Assembly: GCA_008632985.1 (NCBI GenBank)
Contig: QPGO01000064.1
Coordinates: forward strand, 310,001-374,000
Reading direction: 5' to 3'
DNA length: 64,000 nucleotides
From: Psammoneis japonica
Lineage: Eukaryota
In this document: positions 2,217 to 64,000 of the stretch, one piece after another
Layout: each line of letters begins with the position of its first letter
Position numbering within the stretch: position 1 is the first letter of the stretch
Position numbers and translations under genes: made by a program
Notes under the pieces: generated by a model
Database searches by the model: none
The model's input: the letters and a program-made list of their open reading frames with translations, nothing else
What the model was told of the DNA's origin: nothing

Positions 2217-5200
2217 CTCTCCATGGGAAATCGCCGGTTTTGCCAATGTCTGCCTCGCGCACCAGGTGCAGGTTTGTCTGCTGCTGCTGCAGCTGGAAAC
2301 CTTGCCATCCACCCAAGTTTCTGAAGGTTGACTGTGGGTGTTTTCCAACACATCACAAGATTGAGAGCCACCGCTGCAGCCACCACCACAGCCGCTGCCC
2401 TCTTGGGAGTTGTGTGCATGTGACAAGAAGGAAGCTGAGACAAGAAGAGAACAGCGCCGGCAGCCAAGCTCACAAAGAGGTGGTTGGCATGCCAGCCTGG
2501 AGGTCAGGCAAGTTCCAAATGTGCATTTTGAGTCTGAAGTTGATGCCGCCAGCACAAAACCACCATGCAGCTCCGTCCCACTGCACAGCACTTGTTGTGT
2601 GGGCTGCGATTGCCACTTTTCTTTCACTGCGCGCAGGTGTCAGCACAAAACAAACGCAATGGAAATGAGGTGTTTGCAGCCATCAGTGACAAACAACACA
2701 GTCACAACCATCACACCAGCATGGCAACATGAACATGATGCTTTCTCAATGACAACACCTTCAAGAAGCCCACAACAATCTGATGAAAGATGCGACACAA
2801 AGTCACACACAAAAATGTTCAAAGTTCCAGCGAAATGGGCTTGTTGGGGGGGGGGGGGGGCTGCGGCAACCAACAAGGAACAGTGTCACAAGACAACATT
2901 TTTTCTTTTCTTTTGATCAAAAATCAAAAACACTTTTCAAAGTGTGCTTTGGCACTGACTTGTGAGTGACATTGACACCTGTTTTGTTCCAAGTCAAAAA
3001 ATGCAGCAAGGGATTGTCAGTGCCAACATTGTCTTCATGCTGTCACAGCACAGTGTGCCATTGTGCTGACACAGATGCTTTGTGCATGTCTGAGCAATTG
3101 CTCAAACTTGCAGCAAGTTTGAGCAATTTGAGCAAGAAATGGTCATGCCAGTTTTTGAGCAATTGCTCAAACTTTTAATTGGAAAAGTCAAAAGACTGGA
3201 GCTCTCAGTCATGACCATCAAACATTGCTTGGTGTGGCATTGGCTCATTTCCATTGTCATTTTGTGCATGCAGCCAAGTGTTTGAGCAGCAGTTTTCCCA
3301 CATGGTGCTGAGGATGCACACGAGCATTTTTGGCAAAGCCACAGACAAGAGGATCTCCAGAGCTTGCTTGTCCAGTGCTCCAGCGGATCCATGTGTCATC
3401 ATCTGGGTGGGGCCGTGTGACTTTCTCCTCTTTCTTGCCAGCACATGTGTTGTTTGCTGTTGCTGGTTTGCGGGAGCTCTTTGGCTTGTTGCTTCTGACA
3501 CTCTGGTCAAGAGCAAAGCAGAAAGGAGTGCAAGACTGTTGCAAATGGCCCTCATCTTGTCTCACATTTTGAATTTTGTGAGATGTTTTTTTGGCCCAAG
3601 CTCAGACACAACAGTGTTTGTTCTGCTCAAGTGCAGAGAAAGTGGAAGAAGTCATGCTCTTGCTGAGAAGGTTTTGCCCGCCAAGTGTGCCTTGGAAGAA
3701 AAACAGAGAGCCAGCCAGCCAAGCCCCCCGGCAGAGTGCAGTGGCAACCATTTTGAGCTCACTCAGGGTCACTCATTGTTCTGCATGCTTGCAGCAGCAG
3801 TGGGTGCTCTCTTGTGTGGTGTGTGGTGTGTGGTGTGTGGTGGTGTGTGGTGTGTGCATGTGCAGGAGAAGCTGGAGCGCTGTTTCTCTTGGTTTTGGCC
3901 TTTTTGCACTGGCCAAACCACAAGGAGATTTGTTGCATGCCCAAAATGATGTGCTCATGTCAGACACATGCAGCCAGCATCAGACTGGCTGTGTGTCCAG
4001 CCATCAGCCATGCATCTCCAGTGCTTGTTGCCCTCCATGTCACATGAGAAAGCATGCAACCATGCTCTCCTGTGCTGACAACTGGCAAATGCCGGCAAAC
4101 AGCTTGTGACCCAGCTTGTCACCACAGCAGTGAAAGACACATGGTGCAAATGCATGTGCCGCACACACTGCATGACTTGTGCCCACTCTGCAAGCAGATG
4201 TGTGTTGACGCTGCTCTGCACCAGCTGCAAAAAGTGAGGCCAAAAGGTTGTGCACTCTTGCTCAAAATTTGTGCTGGCTGAGCCCACAGATTGTGAGGAT
4301 GGTTGGGATGAACCATCTGGGCAAGGATTTGGTTGGGACAAGCTTGATGCTGTGCTGTGGGGCACAAGAGACAAGAAAGTGTCAGATTTGCAAGAACTTT
4401 TAACATCATGTGGAGAGGATGCCAAATGCACTCACCCAGGAAAGTCAACTGAGAAAGCACAAAGCAAGGGCTTCCAAGGCAGTGAGTTGTGACACAAAAA
4501 CAACAACAAAGACCAGCTGGTGCTTCACAAATCTGATGGAGTTGCTGTCCTGGCTGAGCTCCATGTTCTGTTCCTGTCACAAGATGAAGACCATGACACA
4601 AACAACATGTGTGCACTCACTGGGTGCAATTGTGGTGCCATCCACAGTGGAAGTGAGCTGAGTGGTCATGGACTCACACACCATGGTCATGACAGAGCAC
4701 TTCAAAAGTCAGCAAAAAATCTGCTTGTTGGTGTGATGCACAAATGACCAAGTCCACATTGGGAGAAGTGGCATTTTTGTGTTTGTTCGTTCAGCACTGT
4801 GCTGGGTGCAAGTTCAAGACGAAACATTGTGCACTGTGAAACATGCAGCTTTCTGTGCATTGATGACATTTTGTGTGTTTTTGTCCAGCAGCCAACTCAA
4901 CACATGTGAGCAAACACATGAAATCATCTGAAATGCAACCTCAAGGAAAACCACAACAACTGGCCAAAATCAGGCAAGAATCTTGTTGCGCCCACTGGCC
5001 ACCCACCCTGCAGCAAGGAGCAGGGTCAAACACACAGTTTCAACACTTGCTGCACAGCAGTGGGTTCAAGGCCCAAGACAAGTTTCCACTCCACAGGGGC
5101 CAGCATGTGCAATGCACGTGGCTGCAGCACCCCCCCCCAACAACAAGCCTGAGTCACTGCGCAACAAAGCATGTGCAGTTGACCAAACAGCGACAGGGGT

Positions 5201-7875
5201 TTGGCTGATGCAGCAAACAACAGAGAGCTTGTTGGAGGGCTTCATGTCACAAATGTTTTTTTGGCATGGGACATCTTCCATGCTTCTTTTTTTCTTCCTC
5301 AGATTGTGCAGAGGGGCTCTTCACAGCACTTGTTTTGCATTTTGGTGGTGTGCTTGAGTGGTTTTCTGGTGCACAGCTCACCCTCATTGGTGACACCTCT
5401 GCTTTTGATGGCCTGAGTTGTGCAAAAACTTTCTTCAAGTTTTGGCATGATGGACACAAGAGAGCAACATTGTGCTCAGCATTGTGGGTTGGAGGGGTGA
5501 CAAGCAAGAAGCCCAGAGGCCAAAGAGCAAGAGGTGGCCAAATGATGAGAGGAAATGCAGATCAATGAGTGTGACAACATTTCAAGTTTGTGGCCACTTT
5601 GGCACTTCACTTTGAGGCTGATGACCTTCTCAATTGAGCACTGAGATGCTGTCAACACTTTCATTCATTGCCTTTGCCTCTGCATCTCAAATGGCCGCTG
5701 GTTGCCCCACCTGCTTGTGTCACACTTTGGCTCATGATGCTGCATCAATGTCAGTGTGCATTTGACTCAAGCCTTTTGCTCAGGTTGGCTGATCAGCCAA
5801 TCTTTGAAACAGCCTTCATCGCACAAAATGCACATGCAAGGTCAGCTCCCCTGATTTCTCTCTCTCACACATGCACAAATGAAGCCAGAGTGCTGCTCTT
5901 TTTGGGCATGTGCAAACTCTTTGCACCATGAAGAAACTCAACAGGGTCATTTTTTGAAAACAGCCTGGCAGATTCTTTGATGGAAGAGACAGAAAAATGG
6001 CAAAGCCAAGGGAAGCAAAATGCTGCTGTGCAAGCAGCTTTCTTGTCATTTTGCAACAAATTGTGTTCCTGAGACTTCTTTCTGTGGCATGCTCCAGTGC
6101 CAGGCATGCACACAAAAACAACTTTGTCAAACTCATGTGTCATCATCAGTGTGCTTGCGCAACCATCTCAAATGTCAGTGCCAAAAAAGTTGGTGTTTTG
6201 CAAAGACTGCAAAGGGCTACATTTAGAAGCAAGTGCCCAAAGCAGCGCCCAACAAAACAACAAACATGATTGTCACACTGGTTGGCAGGGCTGCTCTCAA
6301 CCTTGTTTTGTTGAGAGTGATGCGCTGTTCAAGAGCTCTCAAATTTTTGTTTTTAGCTTGCTGGCACCACATTTCTCTTTGCTCAGCTCAGCAACCACAG
6401 GCTTGTGCTTGCACCACAGCAACTTTCAAGAAAAAAGAGTTTCTGCACCCTCTTCTTGGGGCCACCATTCTTTCCACAGCCATTCTAAAATTGTTTGACA
6501 CAAAAGCAACATCCCACTGCACTGAGTGCCAACCAGTTGCACCCAAACTTGTTTGCTTGATTGTTTCTGTGTCTCACAGATCTCCACTTCAGTGATCTCA
6601 TGCACCCTTTGTGTGCAGCAGCTCTGTTTGGGCATGCTGAAGTGTGCCGCAGCTCACTGAGCTTGTTCTTTTTGTCAGTGCACATCACTCCACACACTTC
6701 ATGATGTGTCAACTGGTACCACTTCTGCAGCTGCAAAGTCCAGAGAAGTTGCCAAAAACAACCACACACTGCCATGGACTTGTGCAAAAATGCTTGGCAG
6801 TCAACACAGAAAGGACAAGGATAAAGAAAGAAGGAGGAGATGGCAGATGGCAGAACAAGACAAGAAGTCAAGAAGAAGGCACTGAGGAGCCCCAGCCAAG
6901 ACCTCCAGAAGAAAGAGCACCCAGCTGCCCTTTGAAAAGCTGTCATGGCACATTGCCTTCAGATGCTGACAGGACAAATCAATTGGTCAACGACTTGTCT
7001 GGGCTCTGCAAGAAATCAAAAACTTGGTGTGAAAATCTGTTCTCCTTTTAATTGTAAAGCAATGCTCAGCAGCTCCTTGCACACACAATCCCAGATGCAA
7101 AACAGAGCACACAACATGTGCAAAAACCAAACAAAAGGCACAAAATGGATGGAGGGTGTGCTCTTGCATTGCTTTGCCAAGGGAGAGACAAAGACACAGC
7201 ATCTCAGCAGTTTGTCTTGCACCTCAACAACTTCTGCCCAGAATTGTGCCCATTTGTTGGACTTGCACTCAGCAGAAAGAATTTGATTGGATTCAGTGCA
7301 ATGTAATGGATGAGGTCACTGCAGCTGCAACGTGGGATGAATGAAGCAAATGCAAACACAGTGACTCAATGTGTCATTGCCAAGTGCCTGCATTCTCATT
7401 TTTGTCATTGGTTTGTTGCTCTGGAAGCCACTGTTGGGGAACTGGGAAAAGATGTGCACATGAAGCAACAACTTGCGGCTCATGGTGTGAGACAAGCAAA
7501 AAAGGAAATCAAGCACTGGCACAAAGCAGCAGATGGGTTGCTCAAGCACAAGACAGGAGGCTTGATTGTCAATCCTGCCTTTGCACGGAGACTCAAGAAG
7601 GTTGGTTTGGTTGTTGGCGGTGATCATGGCCAAGACATCTTTCATAAAACCCATCAAGCCAGCCCCTTGTGAGTGCCATGGGGTGCCTGCAACAAGGCAA
7701 CTGATGTCATGCAATGGGTCACAAGGGAAAGCATGGGAAAATCAGGCAGCAGTGCCCATGACATGCAACAGAATGAAGACATGTCAAATTTCTTGGTCAT
7801 GTCAAAAAGCAGAAACCGAGCCGCAAGAGGCAGGGAACACTGACAGTGAGGGCCTTTCTGTTGACAAGTTTTGAG
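2217..7875. mobile_element. Hypermutated repeat/TE-derived tract A (TpA- and CpG-depleted, TpG/CpA-rich)
   Basis: Only about a dozen TA dinucleotides seen by eye in ~5.6 kb; CG rare in the core; dense spurious Cys/His-rich ORFs in all frames; coding relic ...KKVGLVVGGDHGQ near 7600. Confidence 0.7.
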
Positions 7876-20972: not shown

Positions 20973-21268
20973 TGTCACGAAGATGCGTCTTGAGCGTTGT
21001 TGCGGCGGTGATAACGTCATGGTGTTGCCCTTCACACCCTTCACTTTTTGTGTGAGAAATTTGAGCAAAGATTCTGGATTTCAATTTCAATATGAAAAAA
21101 TGAATTTGAATACGCTTATTTAAATTTTCCTATTTAACCACATGCATACGTCAGAAAGGCCCAACGGATTTGCGGTATGTTCGCGCTCGCATTGGCGAAA
21201 TCGCGCGACCAGCACAACAAACGCACAATCCGAACGCAACAACGCCGTTCGAACAATACCCGTCGACC

Positions 21269-21791
21269 ATGGTGAAAGTTTGGTACGAACCACCTCCCTA
21301 TGGGCCTCGATCGGCTCTCAACCGTCCCGCCTATGGTATTCAGGGAGGCACAACCTCTCAGTTTGTGCAGCGTCTCTCCAAGATGCCTCAAGGACAGGTT
21401 ATCGTTGGTGCTGTCGTGATTGCGGGTGCCTTGTCATACATTCCTCTCAGTAAGTAGAAACAGTACTGGCGCTACGTGAGCACCGATTTGCCTTGTTTGC
21501 GCTCACTTTTTCGCTCGCTCCTTGCTTTTTTGCAGTGAACCAAACGCTTCCGTTTACTTGTTCCCCCGAATACCTTGCGGCTCAGCGTGCTTACATGCGT
21601 TACCACAACATGAATCCCATTTGGGGTATCTCCTCCAAGTAAGTGCGACGGAATGGGGAGCAACGAGCGTCTTTTCTACGCGATTAAATTTTTATGTTAG
21701 TGTTAGTGCGTGAGACGGAGGACTAATTTCTCTGTTTACTTCTTTCTCTTTAACCCACAGGACGGCAAGGGCTGCTGACGAGGGACATTGA
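21269..21791 (+). CDS. Small three-exon protein resembling cytochrome c oxidase subunit IV (COX4-like), 104 aa
   Basis: Exons 21269-21449, 21536-21638 and 21761-21791 with canonical GTAAGT..AG introns splice in frame. One TM helix (QVIVGAVVIAGALSYIPL) is followed by LPFTCSPEYLAAQRAYMRYHNMNPIWGISSK, which resembles the COX4 C-terminal PxT..E.....M....NPI.GxSS pattern. Confidence 0.7.
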
Positions 21792-22069
21792 GCAACACGA
21801 GGTGTTTCGAGGATTAGAATATCTCCCTTTAAATGATTAGAGGAAGTTTGAGTACTACAACCAACGTCTTTGTTTTTTACGCTTTAGAAATCACCGGCAT
21901 ATCGCTCACGTTTTCAGTTTTCGTTTGCATTTTCCCAAAACGCTTTCACTTGTCTTGCAGTACTTATATCGACGGTATTTGCTTCGACTAGAGTAGAGGG
22001 TAGACTGCAGGAGGACGCGCTATCCATCACGATACGAAGTCGCGATTACCGATTACCAAAGCTACTAGA

Positions 22070-22230
22070 AGAAGAAAGGAACCCCGTTTTAGATTATTTG
22101 AGTATGTGCATACTTGTTTGAATTCAGGTGAGGAAGATCCCAAATGATACCGGACTCATTGTAACAATAATCCTTTCCTCTGCGCCCTTCACCGGTTCAC
22201 ACAGGAACTTCTTGGCAATCCTTATCTCGT
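22070..22230 (-). repeat. Degenerate tandem copy of the last codons and 3' flank of the adjacent frustulin-domain gene
   Basis: AGGAACCCC..TTTAGATTAT..ATGTGCATACTT..TCAGGT..GAAGAT and TTGTAxCAATAATCCTTTCCTCTGCGCCCTTxACCGGT..CAGGAACTTCTT occur at both ~22078-22212 and ~22438-22602. Confidence 0.75.
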
Positions 22231-22534
22231 TCTTTGAGGCATTTTGTGGGTTCATCTGACTTTAGGGTACTGTGCTTCCGTTTCAGTCGACAACAGCTGG
22301 GGAAAGCAAGTGGCGATTGTCGAAGAACAGGCGTAAACCGTGAACTGGCTCTGCGACAGTGCTTTTGAAGTTACTGGCATGGGAACGGTGCCTCATTCGA
22401 TTGGGCAAGACATTGCATGCGAAAAGCTCGAGAAAGAAGGAACCCCGGTTTAGATTATGAGCGTATCATATGTGCATACTTAGTTATCCGCTCAGGTAAA
22501 GAAGATGCTGTCTCCGACAAAATGATGCTGGGAC

Positions 22535-25244: not shown

Positions 25245-25689
25245 CTTGCTGATGCAGAGAGACCTTAGAGGAATTGAAAATACTGATTTATTGACTCTTG
25301 CAAGCAGCGGTTACTCCAGTATGGGAGGAAAAGATAATGTGATGGATTGCCCAAGTACGAGAAAGTAGTTTGTGATTTCTGATGTCATTGCGACGAAACA
25401 TTATGCGCGGTTCGCTTCTTTGCTGTTTCTGATGACATTTTGGAGACATTATCGAATGAAAAAAATTATCGACAGACATTGAAATATTTTTAATGAAGGT
25501 ATGGCATTGACATCAAGAAATGTCCCATTTATTTAGGGACGTTTCGTGGTACCGTTTCGACATTTCATGGTTGATCCCGCGCTCACATTATTGCCTGGAG
25601 GAATGCACCCTGTTCTCGAATACACAGGTCTACGACTGCGGTAACTCGACTTACGATGAAAGGAAACGAGGTTTACTTATCTGTCTCGA

Positions 25690-28600
25690 ATCCCATGTGA
25701 ACATGCTGACATGCATTTGAGAATGCATGCACCCGCGCATCTGTTTGACATGTGTGCAGGCGATCAATCTGACAATGATTGTTGTGACACCCCACAAACT
25801 GTGGATGCCGTGCATGTCCTCCGTGACAACTTTCTTTCGCTTGTCTCCTCTCTCGCATTCGCCTGTAGAAAACACCATGACTGACAACACTGATTGGCGC
25901 AGAAGCACAGAATGTCAAATGACTCGGAGTCTTGCCCGTGAGTTTGCAATCTGGAATCTTCCTTGACCATTGAATGCCGCACATGTGGCAAAGACATTGC
26001 CCAACACAGATTTCAAAGGTTCAGAAGTTTCGCTGTAAAAAGTGGGGAAGCTGTTGTCAATTCGTAAAGTGCACCAGCAACAAATGGGTGCAACTGTCTG
26101 CAGTCACTGGATCTCTTGTTCATGCAGTTTGATGTGTGTTGATGCAACAAGGAGATCTTGAAGTCTTGAAACCTCATCTGTTCTAGACGCTCATCTTCCA
26201 ATGGAAATCTTGAAGCCAAAGCTCAGATGAGTTGGACATTGGAAGCGCAGGTGATGAAATGCTCGCTCCACAAATTCACCCCTCGCAAATGGAAAATCAA
26301 TCTGGCATCCCTTTAAAATGCTCCTTTTTGCACCCCTTTTTTTGCACTCTTCTTGATCACGACTGGGAATCCAATGATGACCCTACATTGTTGTGTGGCA
26401 TTGGTCCATGTTTTGATTCTCCAATGGTTGCAAACCCTTGCCCTCATGAATGAACAGATCCCGGGAACCGCTGACAATGACAGCAACGCACTGCTGTGTG
26501 AAAAGATAAAATCATGTGTTGACAGCCATGAAACGGACTGCCAACCAGCCCTGCATCAAAACAAAACCAAAATTCCATCTTTAAAGTGCTGCTGCACTTC
26601 CACCCCGCAACTCCAGCAACAAGCTAACCCACACCCCCAGCGCACTGACAGCACGGCAGGAGCACACAACAATTGGCCAGGATTGGCATCACCCGCAGGC
26701 GATGCCGCGCCAAAGCAACTTGCGACAGCTCAAGTTCCGCGTGCAGCCAGACGCTTGGCTTCTTTAATGCTCGACTTGAACATTGGTTTGACCACAGCTG
26801 GCCAGTTTCAAATGCGATGAGTGGAGTGTGTGAGATGTTCTTCAACCGAGTCGAACAGTTGTGACCTGTCGTTTGCAAGACATTCGTCTGATCTTGAATG
26901 GATGGCCCGAACCTCTGCCTTGGCGTCTCTCCGCTGGGATGACTTCCCAGTGTCCGAATCGTGGCCATGTGCATCGTCATTGTGAGAGTCCCACAACTCC
27001 CACCATTGCTCCCAAATGTAATTGCCAACCGTTGCTGCCCAGTCCAAACGCCGCTCTTTGTCCGAAAGATCCTGATGCAACCCACCAGATGACAGGCAAG
27101 CTCGCTGCGTCTCGTTCCACTCGCGGGAAAAACGTTCACCAAAGATGAGCCTCCAACCAGTGGCATCCTGGGATCGGAGTGCAGCCACTGCACTCCTGTG
27201 AAGACCATCGGAACACATGATTTCCTCTCGAAACCATGTCTCAATTGATGAGATGATCAAATCACGGATGGATGGGGATGTGTGAATGTCGTCGCACTTT
27301 TTCCGCAGGCCTTGTAAAAACTTTCTGCGCCATTCTTCATTGTGGGGACACCGCAGAATGTGATCCCGGTCCTCCATTGGATGCTGGCAGTGAGCGCAAC
27401 AGTCGGGCCGCACCGGATTGTGCCGGTGGACGATTTTGTCAGTTGGAAGTAAATCTTGGTCCAACTTGACTGTGCTCACCTTTCTTCCAATGTTTCTTGA
27501 CATCAATCTGGAATGCACTGTCCAATCGATAGACTCACAAACCACATCAGACCACCCACACTTGTCTTTCATGCATCCAATGAGTGCAGGACTGGATGCC
27601 TCGAAGCGGAGAGCAGGCTTGAATTTTGAATTTACAGTCGCATTTTGAACGACCAAATTTGCCATGCAATGAGGTGTCCTGGGGGCCACCAGTGCGTTCG
27701 ATGAGCATTTTCCGTGATGTCGACCAGCTGGCATGTCCACACGCACATTCAGTTTAGCTGGCAATGACAGCAATTCGAAAGGGACTTCATCGTCTTGATG
27801 CCCTTTCACCCAATGGACATCGACAAAAGTTCCGGAAGACTCTCCAACAGAACAGCTCGAGATGGCATGAGCAGACTGGCACATTTCATGCAACAGATCC
27901 CATTCTGCTGATGAGGTGTTCGCCACGTGATGTCGTTGGTGGCAGTCGCGGACTTGGTTGGATTCATCTAGATCGTCTGGCAAGGGAGGCACTGCTGCAA
28001 AGTCCACAATGTGCCAAATCAATGAAGAGTTGTCGCAATGAAGATCAAATCCGAGCGGAAAAATCGATTGACAATGTTCCATCATCCAAAGGATAAATCG
28101 TAATGTGGGTGAGACACCGCACACTTCAGCCCTGTATGAAGATGGATGGAAACCGAACATGGGGCCAGCACAATCCACCAAAGGCACACCTGAAATTGTG
28201 AGGGTCCATCCAAAGGTGCCCTGAAATTCGACAATTGATCCGTCACTGCCAACAGAAGCACGTGATGACTGGAGACACTCAACAATCTCGAATGTCGACA
28301 CATGTGCAGCAATGTCTGTGAACAGGGAAGCCTCCCAATGTGGGAGCGACCGCAGCATCGCCAAGAAATCATTCGGAACAGGTGAGTGCACAGGAGCCGC
28401 AGTGGGAGATGCTGCAGAAGCTGATCTCCAACGGCCATCACTCGCAGCAGAGACCATGACGGGAGCAGCCAAAGGGGACAAATCATGCAATGTCTCCAAC
28501 TCAGAGACGGATTCCGCGCAATTGTCTTGCATTGGAAAAACCTGAAAACCGGAGTCAGTCTGAACATGCAAGCAATCTTCGGCTGGTTCGCAGCATGCCG

Positions 28601-30130
28601 GGCAGGCCATTCGCATGTCCGAAGAGGGAACAACCCACTGTCCCAATGGACCTTTGAGTTTCGTCGCATTCCCCACACACAAAAGTGAACAGAACCGCTT
28701 CCATTGCTTCCATGCACATGCAGACGGGCGTTGTTGCTCTGCTGGGTTCAACATCGACACTCCGCTGACAAGAGACTGTTCGCCCTCCAATGTGCATCGA
28801 TCGACAGACCGACCATCTGGAAGAGCAATGTCCAAAAACAGTTGAGACATTGAGGTGCAATCTGCAATGGTTTGCCCACCTGACCTCGCGATCTGCAAAA
28901 ATTCCCGAGTCCAAAACCACATCCATGACACATTGGTCATTGTCTCTCTGCAGCAGAAGGGCGCCAGTGTTGTCAAAGTCGATGCAGGCATTCACTCTTG
29001 CAAGAAATGATCACAAGGACACAAACCATTTTGACTCTGCGTGAGGTGGTTTCGAAGTCACGTCATGGAGGAAACTGATGCCCGCACCCAAATGAAACTG
29101 AATCCAAGAGATGGCAATGTGGGACATGGCCTGTGGTTGACCCAATCTGCTCCAGTGTCATGAGAACTGCAACACTTGGGCGACACCTTGCTCCACATCT
29201 AAAGAACGAAATCCTCCTCCACCCAAGGAGCATGGCCCGAACAAGACATCGTGCTTTGTGCTCGATCATGTCCGCATTTTGCGACGATGACATGCACTGC
29301 CTTTTGTTGAATTTCCAAAAGTTCCTTCGGAAGAAAGTGTGCATTTGGGAGAACGCAAGTCATGGAGGACAAGTGGCAGGCAAAGCAATGGGTCCAAGCC
29401 TCGTGTCGGTCTAACGGGCAGGATCGAGGAACACGGCAATGTCATCGCTTTTCTTCTTGAGCACCGAATGTTGCATCTTCTGGCTGCCAATGGGAGCTTT
29501 GTAGTCACCCAGTGTTTTGTGGGACGAGCACGCAGAAAGCTGTTTGCTCCGTCGGCTGGCGGTCCTGTGTCAGCAGGTGCAATCTCGATGATGAGTTCGT
29601 CATCACAAGGTCTGAGACAAGGCTCACCGTTGTCTGCAAACATCCATTCGATGGCGTGAAATGAACATTTGGGCAATTCCAGTTCATGGCCTGCAGCGTT
29701 CAAGAGATTGCACCACAATTGATCATCCTCTTGCATTTTGAAAGCAAGTTCAAGCATGCAAGGCTGAGGCGATGCGCGAAAATCGTTGACTTGTTTGGCC
29801 GTCCCGAAAATTGGCAACTCTTCAGAATGGGAGCAGGATGTTGGAGACAATCCGAGGACCGTTTTCAACCAGCAACGAGCCTCGTGAAGGCGACTTGGGC
29901 AACCTTCTTGGGCATGCCGTTGCTGCGGTTCTGGCCGCGACTGGAGAACCAGCCCTGCATCAGTTGTCAGGTGACGACGAATCACTGGGGCATGCCACCC
30001 CAAGAGAGTGCGCGCGGACGAGAGAGATGCAACAAGACATCATCCACCCATTTTGCTCCGATGACAGCAAGTGCAACCATAATTCGGCAGCAATCACCGC
30101 CATGGCGTTGAAGTCGCCTCGATGGTGCCA
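25690..30130 (-). mobile_element. Degenerate, 5'-truncated non-LTR retrotransposon (diatom Ambal-like LINE: RT fragment, RNase H, C-terminal zinc knuckle); TpA-depleted tract B
   Basis: ORF 26808-28991 has RNase H motifs SDGS..GTFGW, SYRAE, HCDNSSL, HWVKGHQDD and LNVRVD, the zinc knuckle CAHCQHPMEDRDHILRC, and QDATGW/WEQWWELW. ORF 29266-30003 has RT-like pieces SHSEELPIFGT and QLWCNLLNAAGHELELPKCSF. Confidence 0.85.
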
Positions 30131-30380
30131 GAGTTCGGGAATGAAGGGGGCAGTACATTTTTACGGTTTTTGGTGGCGGATACGCAGCGAGAAACTTCAA
30201 TTGTTCAGTCGTGACACGACGTCTGTACATGGCACGCATTGTTCTTCACCTTCACTCATTTTTTCGTCGCGCTCACGCACTCACGTTCTTCGCATCACAC
30301 AACATCACCACAAGAAGAATAAGCATTTCCTTCTGATCCGGTATTGCGCATAATAAAGGCAAGTGCTGAATAAAGAAATC

Positions 30381-33266
30381 ATGTCGTCACTAATGCGACG
30401 AGGTATATGGCTAAGTATTCTAGTTGCCACAACGAATGCCTTTCTGTCTCCTGCTGGTCGGCAATCTGTGGCACGCAAAACCTTTCTCCTGACAACACTG
30501 TCACCGCACACCGTGTTGCTGCTGTTACTCTTCCGGTAGATGCAACATCTTCCACTGAACAGCCCACGAGTTGCTTTCCTACCGACAATGCGTGGGAAGT
30601 TCACAAGTTTGGAGGAGCGAGTTTGGCGACCGCTGAATTATATCGAACTGTTGGGGACTTGCTTGTTACGGAAGCCTCGGATCGCGGTGAGGGTGCCATT
30701 CCAACCATGGCTGTGGTATCTGCACGAGGTGGTATGACTGACTTGCTGGTCAAAGTCGTGGACAGTGCTTGATTGATTTGACTGCCGCCGAAACCGCTCT
30801 GGAAGAGGCTGTTGAATCGCAGATTTCTGTTCTTCAAGAACTTGCACCAACCGACATTACTGCGCCAATCGAGGCGAGTTTCAGGCAGGACGCCAAAGAC
30901 ATATTGTCGGTGGTTCAATCTCTACGCATGTTACAAACTGTTCCTCCGGTTACAATGGAAGTTGTGACGGGCTTTGGAGAGATTTGGTCAGCCCAGACTC
31001 TCGCGGCCTATCTAAGGACGGTTGTCGATGATTGCAAGTGGATTGATGCTAGAGATATTCTCATTGTCAAGAGCAGCTCCGAAGGGCTTGGCGAAAAAGG
31101 TGAAGCATCTACTGGTGGCGTTACTCCACTTTGGGACGAGACTACCATCAAGATGAATGATTGGTGGGAGACAAATGCCGCCGAATCCCCAATTGTCGTT
31201 GTTACTGGATTCGTTGCCAAGACTGCCAATGGTGTACCAACCACATTAAAGCGGTCTGGGTCTGATTACAGTGCCACTATTTTTGCCAAGTTAGTTGGAG
31301 CCAGTCGGGTAACAATGTGGAAGAACACCAACGGAGTTTACACGGCGGATCCAAGGGCCGTACCGGATGCCTTTCCCATTGCATCGTTGAAATAGTACGT
31401 TTCTGTTGGTGTCTTCGTTTTTATTCCCACTTGACGAAATCTAACCTAACTCTTGCCTTTCTTCTGTTCAGTGATGAAGCCATGGAGCTCGCTTACTTTG
31501 GAGCACAGGTGCTGCATCCCTCGGCAATGGTCCCTTGTATCGAAGACGAAATTCCTGTGTATGTTCGAAACATTTTCAACCCGTCGTTTGAAGGCACGGT
31601 AATTCAGGGTCGCTCCAAGACTCTCGGGGAAGTCATGAAGGATGCGCAGATCAAGAATTGGCGTTCCAAAAGTGGAGAAATTCCCATCAAGGGTATCACG
31701 TCTGTCGAGAAAACTGCTCTTGTTACGTTGGAAGGCGCCTCCTCTATTGGAAATGTCGCCGCTCGGTTCATGGGAGCCATGGCAGATGCCGGAATCAATG
31801 TTCTCATCATTACACAAGCAAGTAGTGAGTCATCCATAACTGTAGCAGTTCCAGAAAACCAAGGGAAAGCTGCTATAGCAGCACTTAAAGATACCTTCGA
31901 GCTAGAGCTGGCACGCAGTACTGTCGGTTCTTTGTCTCTAGTGACTGGCATGAGCATTGTTGCCATTGTTGGTGAAGGTATGGCGTTGACATCTGGAGTG
32001 TCATCAACCTTTATGAGCTCCTTGTCGCGTGCCAATGTGAACATCCGCCTCATTGCTCAAGGATCTTCGGAGCGCCAGATTGCGGTTGTTGTCCAGGCCA
32101 GTGACGCGTCAAGAGCTCTGCGAGCCGCCCATCAAGCCTTTACTTTATCAGAAACTGTAGCAAGCGTTGCTCTTTTGGGCAGCCGCGGCTATGTCGGTAG
32201 TGCTTTGTGTAACCAGCTACGATCACAAAAGAAAAAACTCGCAGAAGATTTGGGAATCGCGGTTTCTGTCAATGTCGCAGCGTGTTCATCTACCATGGCT
32301 TTTTGCAAAGATTCCCTCGGTCTAGATATTGGTAGTCTGTCCGAACAGTTGAAGAGCCAAGACGCAGTAGATTTTGATCTGGATAAGATAACGTCCATCA
32401 TGGCTGCCGATGTGAACCCGCTAAGAGTCATTGTTGACTGCACAAACAGTGATGAGGTAGGAGAATACTATGAACGATGGTTGGCTTCGGGTATCTCGAT
32501 TATCAGTCCCAGCCGCAAGGTTGCTTCGGGAAACCTTGAGCGTTACCAACGTGTTTGCGAGGCCGCCAGAGAAAGTTCTACAAATTACTTTATGGAGAGT
32601 AGCGTCGCTAACGCGCTTCCCATTATCAGCACTCTGAATGATCTCCTTGAAACAGGCGACTCCATCAAGACAATTACGGGTGCCCTCTCTGGAACAATGG
32701 CATACGTACTCAGCACCTTTTCTGAAGATCTGCCTTTCTCAAGAGCAGTTCGGAACGCTATTGAAAGGGATATCCCGGAACTCGATTTCCGTGTTGATTT
32801 AAGTGGACTGGATACAGCGCAGAAAGTAGTAATCTTGGCGAGACAGGCAGGTTTGGACGTGAGCGTTGAGGATGTAGAAATCGAGAATATTGTGCCCGAG
32901 GAAATAATGTCAAAGTCCTACGGAGGAGACCAGCACGACGAAATGATTGAAGACGTAGAGAAGCACATGGATGGGCTTATGCAGGAAAAATTCAAGGCAG
33001 CCGAAGAAGCTGAAGGACGACTTCGCTACAAGTTCTCCATTGATCTCGAGACGGGAAAGTGCAAATGCTGGCTAGATACAGTGTCAACTACTGATCCTCT
33101 ATTCCGGCTGAAGAAGAAAGAAAATCTTGTTGCTTTCGAGACAAGTCGATATGAATCCTCTCCAATGATTGTGAAAGGAGCATCAGCTGGTCCAGACCTG
33201 GCGGCGGCAGGCATATTTGCCGACTTGCTCCGTCTGACACGGGCTTACGCATCGAATCAAGGCTAG
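30381..33266 (+). CDS. thrA: Bifunctional aspartokinase/homoserine dehydrogenase, plastid-targeted
   Basis: Presequence MSSLMRRGIWLSILVATTNAFLS; VHKFGGASLA, VVSARGGMTD, TTLKRSGSDYSA, GVYTADPR, EAMELAYFGAQVLHP; two ACT domains; HSDH motifs VIVDCT, ESSVANALP and DLSGLDTAQKVVILAR. Intron 31395-31471; frameshifts at ~30480 and ~30770. Confidence 0.95.
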
Positions 33267-33444
33267 TACAGTGACTTTTGTCTCGAGGCGTTATTCTCCG
33301 TAGAAGTAGAGAGAAAGCGTGATTGTTGCAGATGGACCGTCCAGGGAGAGACAGCACGCTTTCGAATCGGTTATGCTATACCCATGCAGTAGGTCAATGT
33401 GATTCACAAAAAATGCTAAAATTATGTTGTTACTGAATTGTCGT

Positions 33445-39909: not shown

Positions 39910-40010
39910 GGGGGCGCTGTGTCTGTGTAGGCTATAGACTATTGTGAGCGACTCTGTGCATTTTAAAAGTAAGAATAGATAGCATGCTTGGTATTAAAGT
40001 AGGGCACCAC

Positions 40011-45824: not shown

Positions 45825-46149
45825 CGTTTTGTTAGCAGAAGTATTACCGTCGATGCACCCACGCTGATAAAACAATACCGTATGGCTACCTTTTATCAAA
45901 AAAGTGCTGTTTCATATGTAGCAATGCGTACGTAAAGAAGCGAGTATTGGCGATAAAAGGTGGCGATTTTGTGAGCCGCTTCATTTTTATGTACAATTTT
46001 AAAAATGTATAAAGAATAATGTTGAACGGATATGAATGTCTTAATGAATGAATACACCATACTGTCACATAATCATTGGGATACGGCACGTACCGGTACA
46101 AAACCGTAACGTGCTGGCACCGCGGCAGTGAAGAATCCCGATGTGCATT

Positions 46150-49100
46150 GGCATTTGAAGCCTCATGGAAACTTCAAACGATGCCAAAATAAATGATGAC
46201 GCGAGATCGTTTCGAAAATTGAGAGCGCAGAGTGCCGAGCACCACATCATTTTCAGTTGCCTGCAATGATGGATGATGGCATTGCTGCCTGAGAGTCATC
46301 GAAATGAGTTTTTTGATCCCCCACAGCTGCGTGCAGCAAGAAGCAGGCCGGTTCTTCACACTGCCAATGTTTCAGCACAAGAATGTCCCAACCTCATTGT
46401 GCATTTTCACACAACCAGACAAGTGTTAAAAGGATGTGCACATGCCGCACTGCTCTTGTGGACACTTTGGCATGTCCGCGCGCATGGCAAGGGCAAAAAG
46501 CCAGCCCAAGTGCCTCATGTGCTGTGCGCACATGTCTCTGACTTCTCATTGTCAAGCTTCAGCACAACTCCAGTTGTCAGAGAGCAGCATCAATGGCCAA
46601 GTCAGCAAGGGACACAAGAGCCCCCTGTGAGCTGGCAACAGTTGTTGAGCCAACAAACCCAATGTCATCAAAAGGGAGCTCTCTGAGGTTTTTCCTGTGC
46701 TGCTCGTGGGTCTGACCTCATCATCCACAGAGTTCGCTCATGCTGCAGACAGTCAGGGTCAACAAAAAAAGAAACCATGTGGGGCAATGCAGGGGGGCAA
46801 CAGTGTCTCCAAAAAGCCTCCAACGCGGCAGCAGGGGGGATGTTGTGTGTCTCTGCTGACACAACTGGGTCTTGAACAAAAAGGTCACCAGCACCAGTTT
46901 CCAGCACAAATCTTGCAGATCATTCAAGTCTTGAGTCAAGAACAAATTTGTCAATCAACAAACAATCAAAGTTGAAGGGACACTCAGAGGCGAGCCACTC
47001 AAAAGTTGTCAGGCAAGATGAGGCTGGGGGTGGATGCTCGCCATGGGAATGGCGTGATGCAGTGCAAACGAAAAGAGCAACAGCACCCCACCAGACAAAA
47101 CAGCACCTCGACCACATTTTACTTACCCCTGGTGAAAAACACACCAGACAAAGAAAATGCCTCACAAATGTGCTCAACATTGAAGGAACATGAAAGCAAG
47201 TTGACTGGGCATTGGAGAATGTTCAAATCTTGCTTGGTCACCACAAACAACAAGGCATCTTGGTCAAATCTTGAATGCTCAACAACTTTGTTGACTTCCT
47301 CCACTTTTCCATGTTGTCAACCCCTCCCCTGATCAGGAGCCACAGGGTGATTGTCAGCAAGAATGGTGGTTGGTGGTTGGGAGCATCATGAAATGTGAAA
47401 CACACAACATGTGCCAATGGTCTGGACAGGAGCAGAGTAAAAAGGCTGTGTGGTGGAAGAGGCAATGATGCTCAGCAGCCCTCTTTCTCAGCTGCCCTGC
47501 TTTTGCTGGCCTTGTTTGGATCTTGTCCAGATGATGGAAGGAGCGGCAACATGGTTTGCCAAAAACTGACAATGGCTGAGCAAAATTCTGAGTGGCTCTG
47601 CAAGAAAGTGACCTGGCAATCAACATGTCAGTGGCTGCATCCACAAGCATTGTTGTGTGACAGCATTGCTGAGGCACCAAGCAGCTCAGGTGCAGTCTCC
47701 TTGCCAACACAATGTGATCCATTCAATGGGTGGATGTGACCATCATTGCATGGAACAACAGAGCCACCAGAAAGAAAAAACTTTTTTGGGGGCTGGAGCA
47801 AGCTGGCATCACATGAACATCAGTGGAAAGTGCTGCCAATCAGGTGGACAAAGCACCAGAGAGCCGCTGCCAATCTCTGCAGATGGCTCACTTGCAGGTG
47901 CCGCAACAGATGCAGCAGACTTGACATCCAGTGAATTGGCACTTGCAGGATCCATCTGAACACCCACAGACAAAAAAAACAGAAAACAAAAAAGCTGACT
48001 GGTGTGGTGCACACATCTGTCACAGTCACCAGAAGGTGAAGCACCCTGGCTGCACCAACCTTTTGCACGAAGGAGGTCACACATGCCCTTGTCAAAGCAG
48101 ACATGTGTTCAGCAATCATGACCTGAGAGGTTTCAAAATCATGCCAAGGGACACTGCCTCTTGGCAGCACAACAAAGAAAAATGATCTCTTTTTGATGTT
48201 GGGGCACAACATGGCATGGTGGAGACTGGGCTTTTGGACCCAAACATGACACACAATTTCAACTTTTCAAGTGGTCTTGATGGTGGGTGTGAGCCATGTC
48301 ATGATCTACAGACACATGAAAGATGCAGCAGAACCTCCAGAAGGTGTGCTGGTGGCCAGCAGGTGACATGGTCTCTGACAAGAAGCCCTGCAAAATCTTG
48401 GCTGTGGAAGCACTGCACCACACCACATTTGAGCTGCATGTTGTTCATGCTGAGGTCAGTGGTTGCATCCATCACAGACACCACAAGGTGAACAAACAGC
48501 CTGACTGTGCAGATCCTTGGATGCAGTGGACACAGCAGCACCTCTCCAGAGCACCTGCTGGTGGCCACAGCAAGAAGTGACAAAGGGCCTGACAAGGAAC
48601 CATGTGATGCCATGACAAGATCATCAACATGATCCAATGTGGGGTTGCATCTGCCATTGGAGGGTGGCACAAGTGCTTTGACCAGTCATGTGCAGCATGT
48701 CCTTGGGGGTGCAGCATGAGAGACTTGGGAGCCTCGTCAAAAGCACAGGGACTTGACACATCATCCTCACATGGTCCTGTGACACAAGATCAGACATTGC
48801 AGGTGTTGACAGAGGAATGTTGCCCAATGATGGCAGAGACAAAGATGATTGTTTGGGTGCTTGTGGCTCAAGGGCAAACTTGCTCCAGCCCTTGCAGCTC
48901 CACTGCATGTGTCAGAGTTGAAGCATGTGTGCTTCATGCCAATTGTGCAGTGGCCGCCATTGCCTCACAAGCCTTGAGAGCAATTTGGATCTTCTGCTCA
49001 AGCATTTGTCTTGAGAGGTGAGATGGCATGGAGTCACCACCCACTGGAGACTGCACTTTGAGAGCAGCTTGCCTGAAGACTGAGTCAGTGCCTGCTGCAT

Positions 49101-49230
49101 CCTTGGGGTTCTGTGTTTGAGACAGGAAAAGCTCATGAAGGCCGTGGCCCCTGTCCTTGGCCTGGGTGTGTTTCTCGTCTTTAGAAAACTGATCCAGGTC
49201 AAGAATTGTTTCGCCGCGAGTGCTGCTCAG
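46150..49230. mobile_element. Hypermutated tract C (TpA/CpG-depleted), probably TE-derived
   Basis: TA nearly absent, CG rare in the core, TG/CA-rich, spurious Cys/His-rich ORFs; no recognisable protein family. Confidence 0.6.
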
Positions 49231-49610
49231 GAACTCAGGAACTCCATGGATTCAGGGAGATGTCGGTGTTCCTGAAATACAACGTCGATGAAAGCGAGGG
49301 CATCAACGGTCCCAGCGCCATTCATGGTCCGAATGATGGTCAAAGGACATGACAACTACGAGCACACCGTAGCTGACACATTCCATGGGCGATTGCAACC
49401 ACCAAATGATTGAGAGGCTCCTTATCTGCAAGCATTCAATGGTATTTGAGTTACGGGTATTGCTCTGACGGAGAAGTGCTGCACCTCGTTCTACGTTCGT
49501 TCCAATAAAAGGACTATCTCTCAAAGTAGATAAAAAGAGAAACTATACACATTATGAATTATGAGCATACTTACCTTGCTTACCTTACCTACTGTATTTC
49601 TTCACTTCCC

Positions 49611-56885: not shown

Positions 56886-57039
56886 TACTTAACATAAACT
56901 AGAGATGGTGACCTTGAGCAGAACATACCTTGACTTTCGTACTATCCACTTGAGTAGGTCAAAGGCGATTTCTTGAAAGCTATGATGGATGAAAGAACGT
57001 AGTCACTGGTGTATGATTCGCTCGAGATTCGCTGTTGCA

Positions 57040-58700
57040 AATTGAAGGAGCAGCAGTCGAGTCAGCGGAGGAGACCTGGACGTGGCGACGGCCCTCGAGA
57101 TTGTGATTGGTCTGAAGAATGCAATTGCAATCAGGCGTTTTAAGGTCTGCAGCGTGACAAACAAGAACAGAAAGGAGGTGTCGTGTCAAGACGATCTTGA
57201 ACATATGTTGCATGAGCACATTTGTCATTGCAACTTTGTGAGTTGGAAATCCAAGGTTCGAGAGGATTCTCTCTGAACAAAGGAGCAGTTGGTGGTTCTA
57301 TGTTTCAAGACAATCTTTGTGCACTGCATCAGAGTGGCTGCACATCCTGCAAATTTAGGAGCAGGAATCGAGTGTCGGGAAGCGTGACGAGCAAAAGAAT
57401 GAGATGCTGTCGAACGTTAAAAACTTGTTTCAAAATGCATCAGTTCACATCCCTGACTGTGTGACTGGCAGTTGGCTTTGTCAAGCTCTTTCTAGAAGGC
57501 AGAAGAGCTCAGGGAATTAGCACAAAATGTGTTGAGAGCAACATCGGCAACTTGCGCCATTTGAGCATTGCAGGAAATCGATTTGTGCATCATGTTGAAA
57601 GTGCTGGGAAAATCTCAAAACCATTCTGCAGCTGCTGCAGTGCAGTCCTGCACGTTCGTGCCATTCCAATGCTGGTGCCAAATCAAAGGAACTTGGTTTT
57701 CTTTGGTTGTGCCAAGACGACACTGTCACCAAAGGACAAACCATCTTTAGAAATCACATTCTGTGACTCAACGCCAGCAGATCAATGAATGTGCACAGGT
57801 TTCCTTCAATGATCAACTGTGGGCAACCCTCTACAATGAATGCTCCACACAGCACATTTTCTGGAGTTTTGCTCTCTCCAAAGCATGCTTTTTTTTACTT
57901 GGCTCTCTCACATCTTGGTGATTGGCATCATGCATCAGAAAGCCATTCTGTTGCAGAAGGATCATGTCGTTGGGCTCTCAGCAGGGACTCTGTTGTTGTT
58001 CTTTGCATCAGACTGAGGACCAAGCTGCGCACAAGAAAACAGAAATGTCTGGGGCTGCACATGCCATCTTTCAACAACAAAGAGTCCCTGCTGCAATGGC
58101 AAACTGACACAAACAGACATGAGACATCCTCAAAGTTGCTTTTCCCACCTTGTGCTGATGATGAAAAACAATGCAGTGACAGCAGCAAGCAACTTCCTGT
58201 GGTTTGAGCCTTGCACGTTCATCAATGCCCACCCCATCATGTGGAATTTCTGCTGTCTTATGCTGCACATGATGGCTGCACAACACATGAGGCTGCGTGC
58301 TGCAACCATGACCTTCCGATGGCAGGGAGGAGAACAAGACATTCAATTTGACGCTGAAGCCATTCGCGTCTCGTCCACCCACCCCCTGCCTCTCTCTTCG
58401 AATGTTGATCCAGTGACATTTGACATTTGATGGAAACATGAGAGGGTGCATCTCTTTGGACTTTGGGAATGAAAAAGCAATGGAAATTTCACTCCGAAGT
58501 GTGCATTCTTGGATCGTCAGAATTGCCGACAAAGTCATGTGTCATGCGCACAAGCTGTTCACTTTGGGACATCTTCTCGGTTCAGAGGGGAGTGCAGTTG
58601 AAGCAAGAGGAACAGGCAACCACATTCTAGTGACTGCTATGAAGTACACCATATTGGTCTTGCCAACGAAGAAGCAAGAAGCTCCGACCATCCACACCAC
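57040..58700. mobile_element. Hypermutated tract D (TpA-depleted, partly CpG-depleted)
   Basis: Few TA dinucleotides, TG/CA-rich; CG survives at the left edge. Confidence 0.55.
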
Positions 58701-61929: not shown

Positions 61930-64000
61930 TGTGGGCAACGCATGAATGGCTGCAACAAATGAGAAGGAGCGGCTGCAATTTTTCACACTAATGCTGTGTG
62001 GTGCCGGGCGTGCCCTCCTGCTTCTTCATCTGGCTGCTCAAGCAGAGACCTTTTTCCCAACAAGAGCCCACCAAATCACAACAACGCCAACACAACTCCG
62101 CTTGCTCACATTGTGCACAGCTCTTTTCAATCTCAACAACAAGACCCTGGCACAGCAGCTGTGGCAGTGTGGTGCTCAGCCACTCTGCTTTTGCACCATG
62201 ACTCTGAGCCTCTCCTCTCCTCCTGCCACACCACCACACAGTGCACTGCCACATGGCAGCTCCTTTGACGCACATTTGTGCTTGACAAGAAGTTCTGTCA
62301 ACAAGAAACAAAAGTTTTGCACATGTGGTTGGACTCTCCACAGGTGTTGCAGTTCTTCAAAAACCAACCAAGGTGGCCACTGCAACCCAAAAGCACTGAA
62401 TGATGATGTTTTGACACTGGCTCATTTTTAGCCACAAATCTGGTGCTGTCGAAGCTCTCAGTGTTGGGCTGACAGTTGATTTTTTCCAGTGGTCATGGAT
62501 TTGCAATGTTTTGTTTTGCAGCCCAGCATCTCATTCAGAGTTGATTCATTTGTTTAGAAGAGCATTGGTTTGTGGTTCTTCCCCATTGCATTTTTTTGTT
62601 TTCTGCTGCATGTTTGTCTCTTTGTTGCATCATGCACCACGAAGCTCAGCTGCCAACCCATTGTTTGCACAACAATGGCACACCCCTGTTACAATCTGCT
62701 GCACCCTCATCACATGACTGACAGCAACAAAAAAAACTCTCCTTTTGAAATGAGCTTGTCCAACCGAGCCACCCTCCGTTTGCGACAGCAGATGGCACAG
62801 TGTGCAAACTTCTTGCTGAGCTCTTGCTTTTTTCTTTGCACCCAACATCAATTTGCACTCCAGAGCCTGACTCACAATGTCAAGCAGCCCCCACAAAACA
62901 GCCATGTCATCATTCAATGTTTGTCATCATTCACACTTCCTGCTGCTGTGCATGCTTGTCAACTCACTTTTGACCTCATCATCACAGTGCAATTTGACAA
63001 ATTCTGACATCAATCCAGATCTCACAGTGTGGGTCAATCTGTGCCTCATTCAGCACCACTTTCAAGCTGCTGATTGATGATGAAGGTGCTGCAAACACTT
63101 TTGGGGTGCCAAGTCATCAGGGCCAAGTTGGCTGCAAAATTGTTTGATTTGGTGTTTTTGTTGTTTCGGGCGGACCATGCACTTGCACACTCCTGCACTC
63201 TGTTTTGGCTGTGGCAGGGAGCAGATTTCTGCAAGTGCACACCAAATCATGTCTGCTGTCTGTGCAGCTCTTCTTTGTTGCCCTGTGAATGCACGAGCTG
63301 TGTCTCTCTTGCAAAGAACCGCAGAGAGTCATTCAGAAGCCATGCTTGTTGAAGTGCTGGTGTGCCAACTTGGAGAAAAGGATGAGAGGGCTCTCTACAA
63401 AACCAAGACTCCAGGACCTGGGCCACATGAGTGGCAGTTGCAGCAAAAGCTTTGGTGACAGAAAACTCATTTGGTGTTGAAACTTCATGCAAAGTTCAGC
63501 ACAGACAGACAGATGGCAGCAGCAGCACATTTCAACAACTGCATCATCAACAAAATTGGCTGCGATTTCTCACTTGACAACTCATGGCAGGAAAGCTTGA
63601 GAGACAAGGCTGCAAGCCTCCAAAAAATGTGTGGTGTGCAATGAACAAAGCTTGGTTTCATGTTTCTGACTTGTGCCTCAGCAAAGCCTCTCTCGCAGGA
63701 TCCGTTCTTGCTTGAACTTTGGCTCATGATGAAATGGAAGAGATGGCTTGCCTGTTCATTGCGCTTGTTTCAAAAATGCCACTGCAAATTTCTCCACTTC
63801 CCTCAAGCCATTTTGCCAGTGCAAAACAAGTCCATGTCTCTGGCACTCCTGGCATGCTGCATGCTGAAGTTTTGCTCACCCACTGCCGCTCAGCAACCAA
63901 ACCTTTGAATGAGCCACTCTGTGAAGTTTGGGAAGTCAAACCCACTGCTGTTGGGCACAGCCAATTCCACTGGATCAATCTTGCAATGCTTGGCCACAGT
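61930..64000. mobile_element. Hypermutated tract E (TpA/CpG-depleted), continues beyond the window
   Basis: TA and CG both rare, TG/CA-rich, spurious Cys/His-rich ORFs. Confidence 0.6.

Follow-up and report, generated by a model that had tools for sequence, protein, structure and literature searches.

Here we analyse a stretch of 64,000 nucleotides from Psammoneis japonica (assembly GCA_008632985.1, contig QPGO01000064.1, positions 310,001 to 374,000 of the forward strand; hereafter the window), in which the dinucleotide TpA (TA) has been nearly erased from five tracts, one of which, tract B, we read as a retroelement copy. The TA left in these tracts are not a random sample of contexts: their protection goes with the length of the run of A's that they open (or of T's that they close) and does not follow a target motif of the form VTAB (V, not T; B, not A), which an earlier reading made from the sequence alone had proposed. 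The explanation we favour, to which we give a probability of about 60%, is that the leftover TA are survivors, their survival being set by the rate at which each site is converted and this rate being slowed by the A-run that the TA begins.

The borders of the tracts were derived from a two-state model of TA versus the other pyrimidine-purine steps, and the tracts so defined within the window hold a total of 64 leftover TA. Each TA was scored by the longest A-run after it, read on either strand (the flank run below). The tracts, together with the part of tract B from which the analysis departs, are as follows:

Tract A, 2222..7873: 12 TA left, 10 of them in TAA or TTA, 9 with a flank run of at least 2.
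Tract B, 25682..30312: 28 TA, 213 CG, 436 TG and 473 CA in 4631 bases.
Less fully erased half of tract B, 26030..28140: 19 TA, 11 with a flank A/T run of at least 2.
Tract C, 46110..49354: 8 TA left, 6 in TAA or TTA, 5 with a flank run of at least 2.
Tract D, partly erased, 57014..58624: 11 TA left, 7 in TAA or TTA, 5 with a flank run of at least 2.
Tract E, clipped by the window end, 61930..63998: 5 TA left, 4 in TAA or TTA, 2 with a flank run of at least 2.

The TA odds ratio is 0.03-0.22 in tract B versus about 0.5-0.8 outside, and TG/CA are up 1.5-2 fold within the five tracts where TA is nearly absent, the edges of the tracts being sharp. Relative to the outside DNA, the densities over all tracts are 0.09 for TA, 1.58 for CA/TG and 0.88 for AT. 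CG, which is lost to TG/CA as under CpG methylation decay, stands at 0.39 of the outside density over all tracts; four of the tracts are poor in it, while in tract B the reduction is only mild. When the five tracts were compared within the window, no matches to one another were found.

The sequence-only reading had estimated by eye that about 14 of some 19 TA in 26030..28140 lie in TAA or TTA; the exact count is 14 of 19 (12 NTAA and 2 TTAB), and the eight hexamers it listed are all present (at 26036, 26065, 26314, 26507, 26625, 27019, 27633 and 27755). The corresponding share is 39% outside the tracts (722/1839), and in a baseline of 13 close unmutated metagenome relatives of the same retroelement it is 32% over the matched part (357/1107) and 36% over whole loci (1483/4086), which gives the 14/19 binomial p-values of 0.0025, 0.0003 and 0.001, respectively. 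Pooling of the five tracts yields 45/64 in TAA or TTA (p 5e-7 to 5e-10), with each tract at 64-83% (10/12, 18/28, 6/8, 7/11 and 4/5 in tracts A to E). The first of these figures bears out the sequence-only reading's remark that tract A shows the same tendency, and without region 26030-28140 the pooled tracts still give 31/45 (p 5.5e-5). When half-sites are sorted by their 3′ neighbour, those left in the tracts relative to those outside number 54/799 for A, 31/1116 for C, 29/734 for G and 14/1029 for T; the depletion is thus not uniform across contexts (chi-square p 1e-8), with survival following the order A > G > C > T. The three flanks other than A are themselves unequal (p 0.003), T being erased best. 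These counts confirm that the flank bias is real and replicated within the window. It is very improbable that they reflect chance or base composition, with TAA and TTA being merely common here: AA/TT are indeed over-represented in the window (odds ratio 1.16-1.18), but all baselines (outside DNA, unmutated relatives, in-tract TG/CA flanks and AA/TT flanks) lie at 32-46% as against 70% among the leftovers, and runs of at least 2 flank 15% of all in-tract pyrimidine-purine steps versus 53% of TA (p 2e-12).

The bias is best described by run length. For flank runs of 0, 1, 2 and 3 or more, the TA left in the tracts relative to those outside are 19/1116, 11/454, 16/193 and 18/75; scaled to tract length, 19 of 436, 11 of 177, 16 of 75 and 18 of 29 expected ancestral sites remain, which corresponds to survival of 4%, 6%, 21% and 61%. 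With all in-tract pyrimidine-purine steps of each run class as the baseline, survival is 4%, 7%, 23% and 55%. The gradient is also seen in region 26030-28140, where about nine in ten ordinary TA are lost and nearly all run-flanked ones are kept (5/53, 3/22, 7/9 and 4/3.6 left over expected; survival 9%, 14%, 76% and ~100%). A single flanking A (TAAB/VTTA), on the other hand, gave no significant protection (18/518 versus 74/2877 half-sites; odds ratio 1.36, p 0.24). Consistent with this, 34 of the 45 survivors in TAA or TTA have a flank run of at least 2 versus 268/722 outside, and the +2 base is A in 36/54 leftover TAA half-sites versus 35% outside (p 2.5e-6).

The run-flank effect is confined to TA: 53% of the leftover TA have a run of at least 2, as compared to 14.4% of in-tract TG/CA, 16.3% of the CG still present in the tracts and 14.6% of TA in the outside DNA. 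It is also confined to A-runs that take in the A of the TA itself; C, G or T runs 3′ of TA showed no protection in the tracts. The most efficiently erased context seen is TATT (AATA on the other strand), with 0 left of ~93 expected half-sites, and TAATT may be protective, though the number is small (5 left of 21). The run rule was formulated after looking at the 64 leftovers, so that its p-values are in part post hoc; replication comes from the other four tracts, and outside region 26030-28140 23 of the 45 leftovers have a run of at least 2 versus 15% (p 2e-8).

To compare competing context rules we used case-control logistic models ranked by the Akaike information criterion (AIC). Run length reached an AIC of 511 versus 537 for a VTAB-type count of A/T flanks, and 591 versus 635 with the relatives as controls. 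Adding “run of at least 2” improved the VTAB model (p 1e-5, or 9e-11 with the relatives as controls), whereas the VTAB term added nothing to the run model (p 0.28 and 0.37, respectively). The same models put survival next to a flanking T at roughly half (coefficient 0.44-0.55). A purine/pyrimidine rule, under which a pyrimidine after the A is preferred, was also tried and fitted worse (AIC 535 versus 511 for run length).

We therefore consider it quite improbable that the mutator reads nearest neighbours and targets VTAB, an adjoining 5′ T or 3′ A blocking it. Such a mutator would account for the 45/64 leftovers in TAA or TTA and for a graded survival (19/436 for VTAB, 36/252 with one such flank and 9/30 for TTAA). 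However, the single flanking A is not significantly protective; its term is dispensable once run length is modelled; three quarters of the TAA/TTA leftovers (34/45) carry longer runs; the bases admitted by B are not equivalent; and ATAA and GTAA sites have been converted in one of two compared sequences (see below). What holds of the proposed motif is that the leftovers are non-random, that their bias is strand-symmetric and that it resembles a substrate preference, but run length takes the place of its nearest-neighbour rule. The sequence-only reading is thus partly supported, being right in spirit in supposing a context-dependent mutator and wrong in form.

The second of the compared sequences is that of the run X1 contigs on either side of tract B; these are single-copy and differ from the window in 26 letters. 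The differences at the margins of the tract are:

Left margin of tract B, 25320..25771: 5 of 5 differing letters are TA/TG/CA/CG interchanges.
Right margin of tract B, 29978..30426: 7 of 7 differing letters are TA/TG/CA/CG interchanges.

Up to ~450 bases from the borders of the tract, the differences are thus all of this type (12/12), as against 1/14 farther away (Fisher p 3e-6), and those near the margins include three places with TG in one sequence and CA in the other. Such changes extend beyond tract B, at distances of 60-360 bases, into single-copy DNA (25320, 25622 and 30422). As judged from these two versions, the TpA-erasing process is apparently recent and local. Seven single differences of TA versus TG/CA are visible between the window and run X1, of which three lie in ATAA or GTAA (29162, 30063 and 30091); each of these has a single A as its flank, and their conversion is therefore as expected from the run rule and at odds with a strict VTAB.

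Tract B itself contains two remnants of a retroelement polyprotein:

727-amino-acid (aa) open frame, 26808..28991, minus strand: C-terminal part of a retroelement polyprotein, with an RNase H-like and zinc-finger-like region.
Fragment of the same polyprotein, 29266..30039, minus strand, upstream and in a different frame: ELPKCS-type stretch in the translation.

The ELPKCS-type stretch is also found in one database relative (P0002), upstream of its aligned part. The database relatives of the 727-aa frame are three proteins with 26-30% identity, and 137 related stretches, many with ~2000-aa open frames, were found in metagenome contigs, 80 of which were kept for comparisons among relatives. A Pfam search of the window's own frames gave no match, and neither did one metagenome relative (L002) at E 0.001; another (L004) gave sub-threshold matches to an endonuclease-reverse transcriptase (24 bits, below the cut-off), Exo_endo_phos and RVT_1. 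The loci L001-L023 have single open frames of ~1600-2070 aa and represent a retroelement family that is common in metagenome contigs. We read tract B, from its sequence features, as a dead 5′-truncated copy of a retroelement resembling those without long terminal repeats (non-LTR-like).

This element is probably multi-copy. The summed contig depth in run X1 is 408-2336 over tract B versus ~57 in its flanks (7-40x), although contig depth is not copy number and a high depth only hints at many copies. Of the 901 contigs placed from this run, 379 are <90% alike, which hints at many diverged copies of the element, and across 20001-40000 we counted 1513 variant places against the run contigs, in and around the multi-copy tract B. 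Runs X2 and X3 have zero contig cover over tract B, from which nothing is concluded.

The metagenome relatives, 80 in all, show no poverty in TA (TA odds ratio 0.47-0.93), which is thus a property of the tract B copy and not of its family. At the protein level, at 10 alignment columns with tyrosine in at least 60% of 17 relatives, the window has tyrosine in none (0/10) and cysteine or histidine in 5/10 (three cysteines, two histidines, two phenylalanines and one each of threonine, leucine and alanine). The replacement of conserved tyrosine by cysteine or histidine is the outcome predicted by TA to TG/CA changes. Such changes are also unable to create stop codons, in that TGA arises only from TAA and the stops TAA and TAG are themselves destroyed; this is why a dead element could retain a 727-aa frame. 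In the window, 26 frames of at least 80 aa overlap the 5 kb of 25000-30000. Erasure of TpA thus leaves dead elements with long open frames, and gene finders may over-call genes in TA-erased tracts.

The process seen in tract B matches the one reported for the integrated viral DNA of Bigelowiella natans, which the main text of a 2026 preprint describes as TpA-restricted hypermutation (Mettrop et al., bioRxiv 10.64898/2026.01.13.699255). As given there, nearly all changes made by the B. natans process are A-to-G or T-to-C, and they fall without exception on TpA, leading to TpG and CpA; TpA-depleted reverse-transcriptase genes are found as well; the changes at the tracts here are likewise A:T to G:C transitions on TpA. 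The B. natans process is moreover limited to foreign or repeat-like DNA, and here too repeat-derived DNA is affected in the case of tract B, a retroelement of this general sort, while the neighbouring genes are spared. The two cases differ in the organism and in the target, which is viral DNA in B. natans and a transposon copy here, with CpG decay as well. They also differ in the kind of evidence, the preprint resting on mutation-accumulation and the present analysis on composition and the comparison of two sequenced versions. The B. natans changes arise de novo in living lines, far above the background rate; here the one indirect sign of this is the prevalence of such interchanges near the margins of tract B (12/12, as against 1/14 farther away). 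The words “context”, “flanking”, “trinucleotide” and “tetranucleotide” are absent from the main text of the preprint (10.64898/2026.01.13.699255), and as far as seen there the run-length rule is not part of it. Among the titles listed for B. natans, diatom transposons, hypermutation and TpA depletion, none other than this preprint describes a TpA-erasing process.

Given such a process, the leftover TA might be either survivors or new TA made after full erasure, through substitutions that extend runs (TGAAA to TAAAA, TTTCA to TTTTA) or changes adjacent to them. The partly erased parts of the window, namely the left part of tract B and tract D, are informative in this regard: they keep 16 of ~25 expected run-flanked TA (65%) versus 18 of ~80 (23%) in the heavily erased parts (p 2e-4). 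Within the tract B element as well, TA density differs between the halves, with 20 TA in 25682-28140 and 8 in 28141-30312. Run-flanked TA therefore behave as a slowly decaying and not an accumulating class, because they are rarer where erasure has advanced further. Moreover, TA newly made by transitions from TG/CA would be 46% TAA/TTA and 14% run-flanked, and those made by transversions from AA/TT would be 35% TAA/TTA, whereas 70% is observed (p 7e-5 and 1e-8, respectively). An origin of the leftovers as new TA would also need TA to be about six times commoner at run-flanked TG/CA/TA sites (34/583) than at the rest (30/3290), with the runs involved being only 2-3 bases long. One site, at 27755, does look newly made, and the pooled excess of product words has the form that cycling through TAAA would give, with little gain in TGAA (+9 with outside DNA as the baseline, +44 with the relatives) versus a large one in CAAA (+146 and +168); yet this asymmetry is missing from tract B itself (+10 versus +7). 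On balance we regard new formation as an improbable source of the leftovers. When the 10 leftovers within the 727-aa frame were polarised by codon, the outcome was mostly ambiguous, since silent alternatives exist.

The survivor reading can be cast as a rate model. A local process would convert TpA to TpG or CpA (A:T to G:C), nearly saturating tract B, with a milder decay of CpG. A TA whose A starts an A-run (or whose T ends a T-run) would be converted more slowly, the rate falling to about half when two A's flank it and to about one fifth when there are at least three, while one flanking A would bring no clear change and a flanking T (TAT/ATA) faster conversion. Because erasure is nearly complete, even modest differences in rate translate into a large enrichment among the leftovers, and the excess first noticed as “TAA/TTA” would be the product of these run-dependent rates. 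The relative loss rates (-log survival) for runs of 0, 1, 2 and 3 or more are 1, 0.9, 0.5 and 0.16 in the pooled tracts and 1, 0.86, 0.58 and 0.20 in the heavily erased ones; these values are rough estimates, the tracts being heterogeneous and their ancestral state being gauged indirectly.

We infer that the flank bias reflects the forward conversion rate and, more weakly and by analogy, that it has a physical cause. Under such a cause, the mutator would have to open or flip a base at the deformable TpA, and a strongly stacked, slow-opening A-run would hinder it on both strands. If a run blocked the edit on one strand only, the expected survival would be the square root of 3% in the heavily erased and of 10% in the partly erased tracts, that is 17% and 32%. 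At runs of 3 or more the survival is 49% and ~100%, respectively; as this exceeds the prediction, both strands appear to be slowed, which in turn suggests a property of the duplex. PMC5393899 gives the closed state of A:T pairs a lifetime of 1-5 ms generally and of up to 100 ms in A-tracts. In PMC9995336, the base-flipping uracil-DNA glycosylase (UNG) favours flexible TUA over AUT, AA/TT being the most rigid, and its efficiency follows deformability, which offers an analogy for how flanks might tune a TpA-directed enzyme. UNG is a repair glycosylase and not a mutator, and base flipping by the mutator here would be an analogy only.

An alternative that likewise accepts a real difference in rate is that an enzyme acting on single-stranded DNA or RNA reads several bases directly and dislikes stacked A's 3′ of its target. 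We regard direct multi-base reading by a single-strand deaminase as a serious rival, albeit an unlikely one. The protection is orientation-specific, being seen in TAAA and not in TATT, and at runs of 2 the survival (12% and 51%) is near the one-strand-block prediction of 17% and 32%. The main text of the B. natans preprint also proposes an ADAT2-like deaminase as a candidate (10.64898/2026.01.13.699255). Against this, survival at runs of 3 or more lies above that prediction in both groups of tracts, so that the edit on the T-run strand appears to be slowed too. The reach of the changes into single-copy flanks (60-360 bases) tends to speak against editing of the element's RNA but is no argument against an action on single-stranded DNA.

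Several observations weigh against survival under a run-dependent conversion rate, or against its proposed physical cause. At 27755 the window has GCT AAA, with lysine where 14/17 relatives have glutamine, and the TA there looks as if it was newly made by a C-to-A change beside AA. The balances of the products NTGN and NCAN are inconsistent as to which strand was edited in which context; these estimates vary with baseline and tract, and for tract B those based on dinucleotides contradict those based on words. The “expected” counts come from neighbouring DNA or from relatives that are ~30% identical in protein, and the leftover sites are few (n=64) and had been viewed before the rule was framed. 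An A-run on the other side of the TA (AAATA, which is TATTT on the opposite strand) is without protection, which a model of a “rigid neighbourhood” does not obviously predict. Finally, the 5′-most pairs of an A-tract are the least stabilised, which would weaken the argument from base opening.

The agent might be a naturally occurring enzyme that opens TpA, a weak step, in duplex DNA marked as repeated and there modifies the adenine (or thymine). We find this possible but doubtful; the features that could point to it are the run-length protection, the involvement of both strands, the lack of a single-neighbour effect and TAT as the best substrate. Were it true, it would be a genome-defence enzyme without a characterised example, common to distant algal lineages, and possibly a natural double-strand A-to-G editor.

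Other systems that leave dense or context-dependent marks show partial likenesses. Repeat-induced point mutation (RIP) of Neurospora and other ascomycetes introduces dense transitions into repeats, tied to a dinucleotide, on both strands and leaking into adjacent DNA. All of these traits recur here, but the direction is the opposite: RIP makes TpA from CpA and creates many stops, whereas here TpA is destroyed, CpA and TpG are made and no stops arise. As a candidate process RIP (C-to-T at CpA, with TpA up and CpA/TpG down) was accordingly rejected. Methylation of N6-adenine at ApT, with the motif VATB, is known from fungi and algae. It resembles the VTAB proposal in having a strand-symmetric dinucleotide with a claimed exclusion of A/T flanks, and it probably inspired it. 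Here, however, the target is TpA, AT is barely changed (0.88) and the exclusion of nearest neighbours is not seen.

ADAR also prefers G after the edited A. Such a preference is not what the tracts show, G-flanked half-sites surviving better (29/734) than those flanked by T (14/1029) or C (31/1116), and an ADAR-type 3′ preference was rejected. With regard to the 5′ side, ADAR prefers U/T before the edited A, as stated in the main text of the B. natans preprint (10.64898/2026.01.13.699255), and ADAR editing fixed in retroelement copies would be A-to-G with this 5′ U/T preference, like the TpA changes here. ADAR would act on double-stranded RNA of the element; here changes are also found in single-copy flanks, though read-through transcripts are possible.

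Sequence alone offers few ways to approach the TpA-erasing agent, and a quantitative rule for its substrate is among them. The run rule names the oligonucleotides to be compared in an enzyme assay (TAT versus TAAAA), helps to tell an action on the duplex apart from editing of single strands or RNA, and can be used as a test of whether a chlorarachniophyte and the present alga share machinery. It also implies that, unless context is corrected for, neither function nor the age of the element should be deduced from the TA remaining in such tracts.

Among minor observations on the tracts, the erasure of TA is uncoupled from CpG decay, the CG odds ratio being 0.58-0.74 in tract B, at a TA odds ratio of 0.03-0.14, versus 0.05-0.2 in tracts A, C and E. 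Leftover CG depends on context as well, retaining 54% of the outside density in CGC/GCG, 40% in CCG/CGG, 37% in CGA/TCG and 29% in ACG/CGT. The most enriched product word in all five tracts is TGC/GCA, at 1.99x the outside density over all tracts (GC, 1.36x), a gain larger than the loss of TAC/GTA plus CGC/GCG seems able to supply. A runs test for strand clustering of TG versus CA along the tracts gave z-values of -2.0 to +1.7, no different from outside DNA; long one-strand bursts are thus not in evidence at saturation.

At the left edge of tract A, a 44-base inverted repeat with 98% likeness (1731-1774 and 1986-2029) adjoins an assembly gap, a run of N (2030-2216). Outside the tracts, the gene-bearing stretches 16403-17902 and 22813-24953 show collinear matches of 70-78% identity, which suggests an old local duplication. 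Next to tract B, contigs of run X2 skip 86 bases (21449-21536) and 77 bases (31394-31472) with GT..AG ends; these stretches are likely introns of host genes, and run X2, which is labelled “DNA?”, behaves like transcript data.

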